Source: Candidatus Latescibacterota bacterium
Lineage (GTDB): Bacteria; Latescibacterota; UBA2968; UBA8231
DNA length: 64,000 nt
Direction: 5' to 3'
Assembly: GCA_965242865.1 (NCBI GenBank)
Contig: CBDETK010000013.1
Span: 1,216,001-1,280,000 of the forward strand
Both the position numbers and the translations under genes were made by a program. Shown one piece after another: positions 16,973 to 19,812 of this stretch (within the stretch, counting starts at the first letter, position 1; every line of letters begins with the position of its first letter). The notes beneath the pieces are model-generated. The model saw nothing but the letters and a program-made list of their open reading frames with translations, was not told the origin of the DNA and made no database searches.

Positions 16973-18340
16973 CTACTGCAGAATGCGCTCAACGACTCGT
17001 TCAAAGGCCATCGCCCGGGAGGCCTTGACCAAGACCACGTCGCCGTGGCGCAAGTGCGCCGCCGTAAATTCCCCGAGCTGCTCGCGCCGCTCGAAGTGCC
17101 GCGCTACGTCTTGGCCCATGCCGGCGGCGCGGGCCGCGGCCACCAAGTGCGCGCTTTCGCAGCCGGCCGCCAGTACCATGTCGGCGCACTCGGCGGCCTT
17201 CGCGCCGACGACCGCGTGTAGCCGGCCGCTCTCCGCTCCGAGCTCCAGCATGTCGCCGAGCACGGCGATTTTCCGGCCCCCGGGCAGGGCACTGAGCAGG
17301 TCGAGCGCGGCCGACATCGAGTTGGGACTGGCGTTGTAGCAATCGTCAATGGCTGCGATCCCATTTTTGCGCACGATCTCGCCGCGCTGACTCACCGCCT
17401 CAAACTCGGCGAGGGCGCGCTGGATTCCGTCCCAAGGCACGCCGAGGCAGCGGCCGACCGCGGCCGCGGCCAAGGCATTGTACGCGTTGTGCCGCCCCGG
17501 AACCTTGAGCTCGATGGGAACATGATGTAGAAGGAAGTGGCCGCAGCCCTTCTGGTCGAGTACGAGCCTCTCCCCACGAAACTCGCTCTCACGCGCAAAA
17601 CCGAAGGTCAGGAGTCTCCCCTTTGTCCTCTTTACCTCCTGAGCCACGACACGGTCATCGGCGTTGACGAGAGCCGTTAAAGACTCGTCCAGATAATCCA
17701 GAAGCTCCCCTTTGGCCTTGGCCACTCCTTCTACAGACCCGAAAAACTCTATGTGTGCAGTCCCGATGTTGAGCAAAACCCCAACGGTCGGTTCGGCCAC
17801 CGAGCACAAATAGCGAATGTCCCCTACGCGCCGCGCTGCCAATTCCAACACCACCGCCTCGTGCCGCGGCGACAGGTGCAGCAACGTGCGGGGCACCCCG
17901 ATCTCGTTGTTCTCGCTGCCGATGGTTTTCAAAACGCAGTACCGCTGCCCCAAGACCGCGGCGATCATTTCCTTGGTCGTCGTCTTGCCCGCGCTGCCGA
18001 CGACCGCCACCACCGGAATCGCCCAACGCCGCCGATACGCCCGCGCTAAATCGCCCAGCGCGTGCAGCGTCGAGTCGACGGCCAACAGCGGACCAGCGGC
18101 CGCTTGGGCCAACCCGGGCCAGCCGCGTTCTACGACGGCGGCGCAGGCGCCGCGGGCAAAGGCCGCCTCGACGAAGTCGTGCCCGTCAAAGTGCTCGCCC
18201 CGCAGCGCGACGAACAACTCGCCCTCGGCCACGGACCGGCTATCGGTCGCCACCGCTTGCAGGGCGCGGTCCGGCTGGAGGCGGCCGACCGGATCGGCCC
18301 CTGTCCACTGCACCACCTCGTTCAGGGTCACGGCGCGCAT
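16973..18340 (-). CDS. murF: UDP-MurNAc-tripeptide--D-Ala-D-Ala ligase
   Basis: TDSR, FDGHDF, GSAGKTTTKE, NNEIGVP, DDCYNASP, GDMLELG, VKASR. Confidence 0.95.
   Translation of the reverse strand: MRAVTLNEVVQWTGADPVGRLQPDRALQAVATDSRSVAEGELFVALRGEHFDGHDFVEAAFARGACAAVVERGWPGLAQAAAGPLLAVDSTLHALGDLARAYRRRWAIPVVAVVGSAGKTTTKEMIAAVLGQRYCVLKTIGSENNEIGVPRTLLHLSPRHEAVVLELAARRVGDIRYLCSVAEPTVGVLLNIGTAHIEFFGSVEGVAKAKGELLDYLDESLTALVNADDRVVAQEVKRTKGRLLTFGFARESEFRGERLVLDQKGCGHFLLHHVPIELKVPGRHNAYNALAAAAVGRCLGVPWDGIQRALAEFEAVSQRGEIVRKNGIAAIDDCYNASPNSMSAALDLLSALPGGRKIAVLGDMLELGAESGRLHAVVGAKAAECADMVLAAGCESAHLVAAARAAGMGQDVARHFERREQLGEFTAAHLRHGDVVLVKASRAMAFERVVERILQ
17526..17735 (-). ncRNA. Putative structured RNA element embedded in murF mRNA
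   Basis: 16-bp long-range stem (17526-17542 with 17720-17735), inner 7-bp stem (17549-17555 with 17698-17704) and four internal hairpins. Atypical codons in this stretch. Folded by eye only. Confidence 0.55.
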
Positions 18341-19812
18341 AGCGGCGGCCTTTCTCCGGCGCACAAATCCCGCAACACGCGGCGCGCCACTTCGCGGTCG
18401 TCAAAGGCGACGACGCGGTCGGCTAGTTCCTGCTCTTGTTCGTGCCCCTTGCCGGCAATGACCACGACATCGCCGCGCCGCGCTGCGCCCAAGGCCACGG
18501 CAATGGCTGCGGCGCGATCGACTTCGCGGTGCATTGCACTGGGGTCGGGCATCCCCGCGGCCATCTCGTCCATGATGCGCTGCGGATCCTCGCTGCGCGG
18601 GTTGTCCGCAGTCAAGACCGTCCAATCGGCCTGCTCGCCCGCGACGCGGCCCATGAGCGACCGCTTGCCGCGGTCGCGATCGCCGCCGCACCCGCAGACG
18701 CAGATCAAGCGACCGCTTCCCAAGCTGCGGGCGGCCTGCAAAACCCGCTCCAGCGCGTCCGGGGTGTGAGCGTAATCCACGACGACCGCGAAGTCCTGCC
18801 CTTCGTCGATCGGTTCGCAACGGCCCGGGACATGGGCTAGCGCGGCCACGCCGCGGCGCAGGGCTTCGGCGTTCAAGTTTAGGGCCAACCCCGTGGCCAC
18901 GACGGCCATGGTATTGTAGTAGTTGAAGGGGCCGATCAACTGCGTTTGCACCTCAATGGGGCCGGCTGGGGTATCCAAGCTCAGGTGAGTCCCCTGCGGG
19001 CCGACCTCGGCGCGTTGCAACCGCACCTCGGCTTCGGGGCCGCAGCCGTACGTCACCACGCGGGCTTGGGTCCGGCGAGCTAACTCGTCGGCGTGGGCAT
19101 CGTCGGCGTTGAGCACTGCAATCGCGCCTTCTTGCAGCCCCTCAAAAAGCCGGGCTTTGGCCGCAAAGTACGCGTCCCAAGTCCCGTGAAAATCCAAGTG
19201 ATCGCGCGTCAAATTGGTAAAGATTGCCGCTTGGAAGGGAATGCCCTCTACCCTCTTTAAGGCCAGCCCATGGGAAGACACTTCTAGCACGGCCACGCGC
19301 GTACCCGCATCGACGAGCCGACGCAGGAAACCGTGTAGCTGGACGGCCTCGGGCGTCGTGTTATCCATCTTTTCCAATGCGCCAGCGCACCAAAACCCCA
19401 AGGTCCCTAAATACCCGCACGGCAGGCCAGCGGCTTCGAGGGCGTTCCTGAGCAGGAAGGCCGTCGTGGTCTTGCCGTTGGTGCCGGTGACGCCGACGTT
19501 GAGCAGCCCTCGGCCGGGAAAGGCGTAAAAGCGCGCCGCCATTCGGGCCAGCGCGGCCCGGCAGTCCGCCACCTGTACCTGCGTTACGCCCGGGCGAGCA
19601 ATCCGCTCCTCCACCATCACGGCGCGAGCGCCGCGGGCGATGGCGTGATCGACAAAGCGGTGCCGATCTTGCTCCTGTCCCCCGCGCACGGCCACGAAAA
19701 AGTCGCCTTCCTCCACGCAACGCGAATCGCAGCGGATTTGCCCTAGTTGAATGTCTCGGTCGCCCTCTACGCAGGCGTCGGGCAGCTCGTCGAGCAGGTA
19801 TTTTAGTTCCAT
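18328..19812 (-). CDS. murE: UDP-MurNAc-L-Ala-D-Glu--mDAP ligase
   Basis: GVTGTNGKTT, TTPE, EVSSH, NLTRDHLDFH and DYAHTPD motifs; DNPR indicates mDAP specificity. Confidence 0.96.
   Translation of the reverse strand: MELKYLLDELPDACVEGDRDIQLGQIRCDSRCVEEGDFFVAVRGGQEQDRHRFVDHAIARGARAVMVEERIARPGVTQVQVADCRAALARMAARFYAFPGRGLLNVGVTGTNGKTTTAFLLRNALEAAGLPCGYLGTLGFWCAGALEKMDNTTPEAVQLHGFLRRLVDAGTRVAVLEVSSHGLALKRVEGIPFQAAIFTNLTRDHLDFHGTWDAYFAAKARLFEGLQEGAIAVLNADDAHADELARRTQARVVTYGCGPEAEVRLQRAEVGPQGTHLSLDTPAGPIEVQTQLIGPFNYYNTMAVVATGLALNLNAEALRRGVAALAHVPGRCEPIDEGQDFAVVVDYAHTPDALERVLQAARSLGSGRLICVCGCGGDRDRGKRSLMGRVAGEQADWTVLTADNPRSEDPQRIMDEMAAGMPDPSAMHREVDRAAAIAVALGAARRGDVVVIAGKGHEQEQELADRVVAFDDREVARRVLRDLCAGERPPLCAP

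Follow-up and report, generated by a model that had tools for sequence, protein, structure and literature searches.

Small RNAs (sRNAs) located inside an open reading frame (ORF) are considered uncommon, since two functions then have to be served by a single sequence. Related principles are familiar from other systems: RNase III processing stems occur in rRNA and phage T7 precursors, and CsrB/RsmZ-type RNAs sequester protein via purine GGA motifs in loops or bulges. The closest described system is FtsO, in the ftsI gene of E. coli, which is said to be a short, Hfq-associated sRNA. FtsO is presented as the first sRNA inside a bacterial ORF for which a regulatory role has been documented; its wobble identity is 91%, compared with 67% for the gene, its conservation is shown for 18 gammaproteobacterial species, its reads lie orders of magnitude above those of the ftsI mRNA, its 5′ end probably derives from RNase processing of the mRNA, and it sponges RybB through one unstructured seed (Adams et al. 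2021, eLife, PMC7815308). Here, we describe an element in the murF gene of a Candidatus Latescibacterota bacterium, in a stretch of 64,000 nucleotides (nt) that was analysed as a whole and is referred to below as the window (GCA_965242865.1, contig CBDETK010000013.1, positions 1,216,001 to 1,280,000). We find that this dual-coding element is a structured RNA that is new and deeply conserved, and that most likely it also occurs as an independent, abundant small RNA. Full-text literature searches, in which most papers were represented by their listing or the start of their abstract, returned no description of a murF-internal RNA.

Nucleotide-level selection and conserved pairing inside murF

The element lies wholly within the coding sequence and is closed by a long helix, P1.

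16973–18364, minus strand: murF coding sequence, UDP-MurNAc-pentapeptide synthetase of 463 amino acids, which hosts the element (ORF list and translation)
17526–17737, minus strand: P1-closed RNA domain of approximately 212 nt (match to covariance model R1; troughs in nucleotide and synonymous diversity)

In a codon alignment of 30 sequences, comprising the window, 22 sequences from the same genus (71–90% amino acid identity), and seven from other families (46–49%), synonymous change was nearly absent from approximately 17530 to 17740. Within the genus (23 sequences), the synonymous pairwise diversity was 0.01–0.09 in 15-codon windows within 17510–17704, compared with 0.22–0.39 over most of murF, and between families it was 0.11–0.40 in the element and 0.6–0.88 in the rest of the gene. 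The element was also the sole deep trough of nucleotide diversity in 4.4 kb of the dcw cluster (0.03–0.06 versus 0.10–0.27; 22 genus loci, with L019 left out because of its short contig). The guanine–cytosine (GC) content was 0.54–0.58 across 17500–17850, compared with 0.65–0.76 in the flanks, and that of third codon positions fell from approximately 0.87 to 0.47–0.67 inside the element. The rare codons TCT, GTA, AGA, and CTA were maintained even between families. The RNA domain dictates codon choice and some MurF residues in this region. An earlier note made from the letters of this stretch had described an abrupt shift to rare codons within canonical MurF and had proposed synonymous constraint among orthologues as a check; both the shift and the constraint are present.

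In principle, conservation of this kind could arise with no functional RNA at all, from protein constraint, a DNA-binding site, a foreign patch, or a hidden reading frame, in which case the depth in RNA libraries described below would be a pile-up artefact. We regard this as very improbable, and the comparisons in this and the following sections largely refute it. Part of the region encodes GSxEGxAxAKxEL, which we take to be generally conserved in MurF, and the local low GC content resembles that of a foreign patch. Protein constraint, however, is unable to remove synonymous change or to keep rare codons between MurF proteins that are 46–49% identical, and outgroup MurF varies freely at the same residues. 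Residue runs such as FRGEGLxLDQEGCGHFSLQ are conserved solely where the RNA is present, as if the RNA had left its imprint on the protein. In the approximately 270 nt upstream of the element (17740–18010), the genus diversity was also somewhat low (0.10–0.14, compared with 0.15–0.26 farther off); this dip, like the stepped contig depth of run X8 over the same nucleotides (described below), may be due to ordinary protein constraint in the middle domain of MurF, or the RNA may have a precursor or a 5′ extension there.

For the structural comparison, 40 further loci were fetched (L069 and L096 were left out because their frames were broken in extraction), and alignment A1 was built from 47 sequences, selected from the 76 available so that the genus was thinned out. 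RNAalifold predicted a rod from A1, composed of helices P1, P1b, P2, P3, the short P3b, and hairpin P4. The parts of this rod are listed below, with A1 columns in brackets.

17721–17735, minus strand: P1 5′ arm, GUAGAAGGAGUGGC (columns 30–44 with 227–242; 97.6% of cells paired)
17526–17541, minus strand: P1 3′ arm, GCCACUUCCUUCUACA, with one bulged U (consensus fold and pair counts)
17714–17717, minus strand: P1b 5′ arm (columns 48–51 with 220–223; 95.7% of cells paired)
17545–17548, minus strand: P1b 3′ arm (columns 220–223)
17705–17713, minus strand: invariant motif 1, AAAGGGGAG, in the bulge between P1b and P2 (unpaired in the consensus)
17698–17704, minus strand: P2 5′ arm, CUUCUGG (columns 61–67 with 213–219)
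17549–17555, minus strand: P2 3′ arm, CCAGAAG (columns 213–219)
17680–17690, minus strand: P3 5′ arm, GGACGAGUCUU (columns 78–88 with 198–208)
17560–17570, minus strand: P3 3′ arm (columns 198–208)
17570–17577, minus strand: invariant motif 3, GUGGGGAG, overlapping the short helix P3b in part (identical in all 47 sequences)
17608–17642, minus strand: P4 hairpin, with a CAAGGAG/CUCCUUG-type stem and a 21-nt loop (columns 126–132 with 154–160)

Standard pairs occupied 97.0% of the 2209 cells of this fold in the 47 sequences, compared with 41–52% when the partners were slid by one to three columns. Changes on both sides were found at 15 of the 47 pairs, and none of 500 shuffles matched the observed values. 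The pairing persisted in larger samples: 95.1% of 6016 cells were paired in a set of 128 unique sequences, drawn from 179 sequences after 106 loci from a genome collection had been added (L089, which lacked the pattern, was left out), and 93.2% of 2842 cells were paired in 58 unique metagenome sequences from 70 of 72 contigs. The inner seven pairs of P3 were paired in approximately 100% of the sequences.

Several pairs changed in a compensatory manner. The P2 pair 63:217 was CG in 37 and UA in 10 of the 47 sequences, and CG in 75 and UA in 52 of the 128, with no mismatches. On a tree built from the flanks only, this pair changed three times, with both columns always changing together; on the 5′ side, the change is silent (CTC/CTT), and on the 3′ side it exchanges Glu and Lys. 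The P1 pair 36:236 was GC in 37 sequences, AU in eight, and GU in two (GC 88, AU 36, and GU 3 in the larger set), and the P4 pair 126:160 was CG in 29, UA in 11, and UG in six. At locus L070, the residues HF are replaced by SL and helix P1 is retained with its bulge moved, as read by eye from the alignment. Five pairs (37:235, 43:228, 87:199, 88:198, and 92:194) are G-U in most sequences and would be A-C mismatches on the opposite strand, so the fold belongs to the mRNA strand; the earlier note had likewise pointed to G-U pairs, present on that strand only, in several stems. An antisense RNA is disfavoured by the same pairs, although its z score for folding is similar (−2.27, compared with −1.81 and −102 kcal/mol for the sense strand; in each case, 7 of 200 dinucleotide shuffles were as good). 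A DNA-binding site in place of an RNA would leave the G-U-only pairing unexplained. A hidden overlapping frame can likewise be rejected: the five other frames were stop-free in just 0, 0, 0, 2, and 2 of the 47 sequences, so that every other frame is closed by stops in 45–47 of them.

Three invariant GGGGAG motifs accompany the helices, two of them unpaired in the consensus and the third partly in P3b. Columns 52–59 of motif 1 (AAAGGGGA) were invariant in all 47 sequences, column 60 being A or G. Motif 2, again AAAGGGGAG, lies in the P4 loop at 17616–17624, and motif 3 belongs to an exact pattern matched in 106 genome loci and 72 metagenome loci. These motifs are most likely the business end of the RNA, for a protein or RNA partner. 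Further central helices were not adopted, because a scan for them gave many mutually exclusive pairings of invariant tracts, without covariation.

The observation in the earlier note was thus real and strongly non-random, and most of it was found at the coordinates given there. The outer repeat pairs TGTAGAAGGAAGTGGCC (17526–17542) with GGCCACTCCTTCTACA (17720–17735) around one bulged base, CTTCTGG (17549–17555) is complementary to CCAGAAG (17698–17704), and the repeated 10-mer (plus strand CTCCCCTTTG) occurs at 17616–17625 and 17705–17714 in different frames (GCC AAA GGG GAG versus ACA AAG GGG AGA). Its account of the interior fared less well. Of the four inner hairpins that it drew, the one at 17608–17642 is P4, whereas those at 17562–17586 and 17666–17689 instead pair with each other as P3 in both the minimum-free-energy and the consensus fold, and that at 17643–17662 is not conserved. 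The outer stem was not among the 25 of 32 inverted repeats listed by an ungapped repeat finder, because the bulge splits it. No Rfam 15 family reached its gathering threshold, either in 2.5 kb or in the element alone; the best score within the element, for ZNRD1-AS1_2, was 17 bits against the 60 required and is noise. Together with the synonymous suppression and the conserved, compensated pairing, the lack of an Rfam match supports the earlier proposal of an undescribed, dual-coding RNA on the mRNA strand.

Distribution and origin of the element

A blastn search with the 226-nt element as query gave a match in 130 of 168 genomes of the phylum. Matches in four families were full-length, with 70–100% identity (f1, 71/75; f2, 28/31; f3, 3/3; f4, 22/22; in total, 124/131), whereas other families gave only short or partial matches. 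Covariance model R1, built from 33 sequences (214 positions, 49 pairs), had a single match in the window's genome, at 17524–17737 (234.8 bits, E = 7e-66), with nothing else at E ≤ 1. Across the phylum, it matched 109 of 114 genomes in the same four families (f1, 61/63; f2, 27/30; f3, 2/2; f4, 19/19), once per genome except in G134, where the match was split over contig ends, and in G129, which had an extra weak match. Outside these families, R1 scored 88–91 bits in f9 (2/2) and 45 bits in f11, and was marginal or empty in the remainder, with nothing at E ≤ 1 in the outgroup families f5, f6, f8, and f10. The element is therefore confined to four families of one Latescibacterota class, where it is single-copy and located within murF.

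An exact two-block pattern identified 106 loci in a species-genome collection and 72 metagenome contigs. Most of the genomes carrying the pattern were metagenome-assembled genomes labelled Latescibacterota; a minority bore the submitter labels Gemmatimonadota, Handelsmanbacteria, Planctomycetota, or plain bacterium. At 105 of the 106 genome loci, AKGE..KGRLL motifs were present in an ORF sharing the frame of the element's KGRLL codons, and 71 of the 72 metagenome loci passed the same script test, which waives AKGE where the upstream sequence is short; the MurF-like character of these ORFs was judged from their translations by eye, without a family search. All 72 matches in the JGI metagenome records lay on contigs of at least 1.1 kb, and no short RNA-like or permuted contigs were present among them.

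A genome search located MurF orthologues in each of 41 related genomes. The outgroup MurF proteins (f5, f6, f8, and f10) align through the region with no indel, their residues there are ordinary and variable, and the nucleotide blocks are absent. The indel-free alignment and the retention in 124 of 131 genomes rule against a foreign or recombined patch or an insertion, which the earlier note had named as a possible refutation, and the retention spans families whose MurF proteins are only 46–49% identical. A recent patch would also be at odds with the compensatory changes. In the sister family f9 (locus L207, 2052–2265, minus strand), only P4 with its AAAGGGGAGA loop is intact in murF, and P1–P3 are unable to pair; the hairpin is thus older than the rod, which suggests from these sequences that the RNA may have grown stepwise from a single hairpin. 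The domain arose within murF itself, in a single clade of Latescibacterota at the level of a class.

The gene is flanked by murE-like and mraY-like ORFs of the dcw cluster. A second, shallow dip in diversity (0.10–0.11, with a GC content of 0.55–0.58) occurs in the murE-like gene at 19150–19240 of the window and is far weaker than the trough in murF. At locus L019 (G008), the murF match of the genome search contains one in-frame TAG, which may reflect a sequencing error, a pseudogene, or recoding.

Likely accumulation, apparent termini, and proposed route of production

Of the 24 sequencing runs listed as containing words from the locus, 15 are recorded as RNA runs (metatranscriptomes of sponges, corals, and other sources). 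The RNA runs contain 0.17–0.23 of the sampled words of 17300–18000, approximately the element's share of that stretch; runs with <0.2 of the sampled words (X3, X5, X7, and X9–X18) were not counted for habitat or expression. For four RNA runs, each from a different study (X2, X4, X6, and X8), the Logan contigs were placed on the window. In X8, from a sponge, the summed contig depth was 4,397 to 549,901 over 17540–17731, compared with 16–35 downstream (17300–17515) and approximately 20 at 17948 and above, with intermediate steps of 325–479 at 17732–17851 and 113–171 at 17852–17947. In X6, from a different sponge study, the element had a depth of 1,992–3,629, compared with 0–73 in the flanks. In two sponge metatranscriptome studies, the element thus exceeds the flanking murF by a factor of about 10^2–10^4 in summed assembled contigs. 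Summed contig depth inflates conserved segments, as an explanation without a functional RNA would have it; however, a pile-up of species cannot yield factors of at least 10^3, and one X6 contig is identical to the window at 185 of 185 bases. Because contig depth is a poor measure and a conserved sequence pools organisms, the discrete accumulation of the element's RNA is likely rather than proven.

The ends of the abundant contigs point to a core somewhat shorter than the P1-closed domain.

17538–17726, minus strand: apparent accumulating core of approximately 185 nt (metatranscriptome contigs and adapter junctions)

One 185-nt contig of X6 coincides exactly with 17542–17726, and another, the one identical at all 185 bases, covers 17541–17725 and then continues into unrelated sequence, so it is probably a chimera. 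X8 contigs abut Illumina adapters at 17538 on one side and at 17720 or 17722 on the other, and the adapter orientation was uniform in all six of the adapter-joined X8 contigs listed, which fits an RNA from the murF strand if the library was of the usual stranded chemistry. Ends at 17722 and 17538 would give a 2-nt 3′ overhang on the pair G17722–C17540, as left by a double-strand endonuclease, although this is only a hint. P1 and P1b together form 19 bp with one bulge, and other ends were seen as well (17725/17726, 17541/17542, and 17737/17526). The last of these comes from an X6 contig (depth 294, approximately 86% alike) that joins 17737 via two letters to 17526, head-to-tail, at the base of P1. 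A circle, a tandem copy, or an artefact of template switching could each account for this junction; no head-to-tail joint was present among the X8 contigs listed. A circle made by RtcB was rejected because no RtcB gene was found in the window's genome.

Consensus scans found no sigma-70-like promoter and no intrinsic terminator in 17400–18100, although host promoters may differ. With no promoter or terminator of its own, excision from the mRNA is the simplest route to the RNA. We favour, with moderate confidence, an ORF-internal, processed, structure-stabilised small RNA within the murF mRNA, similar to FtsO but larger and more structured. On this account, the murF mRNA contains a selected, rod-shaped domain of approximately 212 nt, in which a 15-bp P1 with its bulge is followed by P1b, P2, P3, and the apical P4. 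An RNase III-like double-strand cut inside P1 would excise the core of approximately 185 nt (about 17538–17726) from the murF/dcw transcript, and the core would build up as a discrete, very abundant RNA, stabilised by its own fold and probably by a bound protein. As a sponge or scaffold, it may then act in trans by way of the purine motifs that are invariant and single-stranded, and every excision would destroy one murF message.

Much of the same evidence suits a purely cis-acting element for processing, stability, or ribosome pausing, which would set the level of MurF and of downstream mraY, with the fragment being an inert, nuclease-resistant decay product. The element lies within a long operon transcript in which the scans found no promoter or terminator of its own, the duplex of approximately 19 bp formed by P1 and P1b suits a double-strand endonuclease, a 2-nt 3′ overhang would result from ends at 17722 and 17538, where adapters are joined, and a cut at P1 necessarily inactivates the murF message. 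A processing stem, however, requires helices and not three invariant GGGGAG motifs across four families, and an inert by-product is not expected at 10^2–10^4 times the flanks in two studies. FtsO, the nearest precedent with the same signature, works in trans, which by analogy would argue for a trans function here as well. We therefore judge a purely cis role to be unlikely, if still worth weighing seriously. The earlier note had interpreted the element as a cis-regulatory site in the dcw transcript (for protein binding, processing, or attenuation), an interpretation that is only partly supported: cleavage may have an effect in cis, but in the assembled contigs a discrete RNA appears to accumulate far above the flanking murF.

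Several observations weigh against a processed small RNA with the rod-shaped fold. The expression estimates come from assembled contigs and not from reads, with one depth figure per contig, summed over organisms, and a conserved sequence gathers contigs from many species, so that contig depth measures expression poorly. In X4, the abundant contig (196 nt, depth 605, compared with 3–35 nearby) lies at 17641–17836 and extends 100 nt upstream of the element, and in X2, from a coral, a single contig runs at a flat depth of 36.5 across 17430–17937, with no peak. The termini disagree, those at 17538–17542 and 17720–17726 differing from the junction at 17737/17526. Regarding the fold, the outer four pairs of P3 are frequently mismatched, and the repeated GGAG-like and CUCC-like tracts allow numerous alternative helices that are equally conserved, such as an 8-bp pairing of columns 82–89 with 149–156, which excludes P4 and competes with P3 as well; the central fold is accordingly ambiguous. 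There are few independent compensatory events, approximately six (three at 63:217, one each at 64:216 and 35:237, and about one at 36:236), too few for sign tests on independent pairs to reach significance (p = 0.5–1). The folding energy, which the earlier note had suggested as a check, gave a divided answer: it was lower than in all of 300 synonymous-codon permutations within the element (z = −3.64), but when codons were resampled from the GC-rich usage of the whole gene, 70 of 300 sequences folded as low (z = −0.66). It is the comparative evidence rather than the folding energy that sets the element apart from chance. Finally, the host bacteria, which belong to the Latescibacterota (WS3), are uncultured.

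The murF RNA beside known RNA classes

The shape, size (approximately 185–212 nt), and apparent high abundance of the murF RNA raise the question of whether it is the clade's version of a known class, namely a 6S-like decoy, a CsrB-like sponge, a CRISPR-associated RNA, or a closed circular RNA; we consider this quite improbable. In favour of a 6S-like decoy, the 6S model (RF00013) had no match in 114 genomes of f1–f4. On the element itself, however, the model had no match at E ≤ 10, and none at E ≤ 1 in the window's genome. In the phylum, it gave sub-threshold matches in 6 of 151 genomes, all in f11 or f12. Since 6S was unseen in the families with the element and in most of those without it, including the outgroup families, the test of whether the two RNAs are complementary in distribution is uninformative. 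The six loci in f11 and f12 (L212–L217) carry full-length 6S-like RNAs scoring 22.7–43.2 bits against a cut-off of 46.4, with the closing stem GUCCUGCA...UGCAGGAC, and are the sole 6S candidates in the 151-genome sample. A 6S identity for the element was rejected, given that it has no family score, is unlike these RNAs, and has an apex without a settled bubble.

The several GGA-containing purine motifs would suit a CsrA sponge, but CsrA (PF02599) had no match in the genome, which is 93.6% complete, and this reading was rejected for want of a cognate gene. An anti-Shine-Dalgarno sponge was also considered: the 3′ end of the 16S rRNA is canonical, and the best duplexes in 12-nt windows (−7 to −12 kcal/mol, compared with −18 for a perfect site) were unremarkable.

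A scan of the genome for the motifs and their complements returned repeat arrays only, one of them CRISPR, and the element and the CRISPR repeat have the 10-mer AAGGGGAGAC in common. The array lies on contig C13 of the window's genome (G000) from 3522935 to approximately 3525500, with a period of approximately 72 nt, a 37-nt repeat whose reverse complement ends in ATTGAAAC, and 41 forward copies within three mismatches. Contig C3 (approximately 5950–6640) carries another array from the motif-cluster scan, GC-rich and in tandem, with units of approximately 66 nt (…CCCCAATCCGGGCTCCCCGGGTCTTCCCGTGCCGGCGGGACGCCGGCGTACCCGGGGCGGGGCGG…). Members of the CRISPR repeat family were present in 13 of 132 class genomes, with none in the 53 from f2 and f4, whereas the element is present in 124 of 131; a link was rejected, as the shared 10-mer is not accompanied by co-occurrence. 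For a closed circle, the evidence is the one head-to-tail junction, a single contig approximately 86% alike, set against the missing RtcB gene.

A bolder proposal is that, throughout the class, an RNA among the most abundant after the ribosomal ones is produced from inside murF, as a housekeeping ribonucleoprotein component or decoy, possibly 6S-like or a GGGGAG scaffold; this we consider doubtful. It is equally doubtful, in the same scheme, that approximately 70 MurF codons were overwritten and that the output is tied stoichiometrically to destruction of the murF message. If true, the scheme would connect the synthesis of cell-wall precursors with a global regulatory RNA. Independently of this proposal, the murF RNA is a clean natural example of RNA constraint shaping the evolution of an essential enzyme's protein sequence. 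If its abundance holds at the read level, sponge-associated Latescibacterota would have a major transcript that has gone unrecognised, which would mark the lineage in metatranscriptomes and be a candidate for a new Rfam family. Gene-centred expression analyses would mistake it for extreme murF expression.

Compared with the systems introduced above, the murF RNA resembles RNase III processing stems in that it is closed by a long irregular helix, within which its apparent ends lie, with a possible 2-nt 3′ overhang; it differs in that these ends come from contigs only and are inconsistent between runs. It is similar to 6S RNA (RF00013) in size, apparent abundance, and a rod shape with paired termini, but has neither a family score nor a clear central bubble, and sits inside a coding sequence. 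Like CsrB/RsmZ-type RNAs, it is structured and apparently abundant and presents several GGA-containing motifs in loops or bulges, whereas its motif is GGGGAG rather than A(N)GGA and occurs in just three copies, and the CsrA gene was not found. The closest likeness is to FtsO. Both RNAs are sense-encoded wholly inside an essential gene of the dcw cluster, so that one DNA specifies two products; in both, conservation at wobble positions greatly exceeds that in the rest of the gene; FtsO reads lie far above the host mRNA, as the murF RNA probably does too, judging from contig depth; and RNase processing of the mRNA, the probable source of the FtsO 5′ end, may also produce that of the murF RNA. 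The murF RNA differs in being far larger, at approximately 185–212 nt, in having about 49 base pairs that are conserved as well as GGGGAG motifs in three invariant copies, and in being kept across four families, where it visibly constrains the protein.

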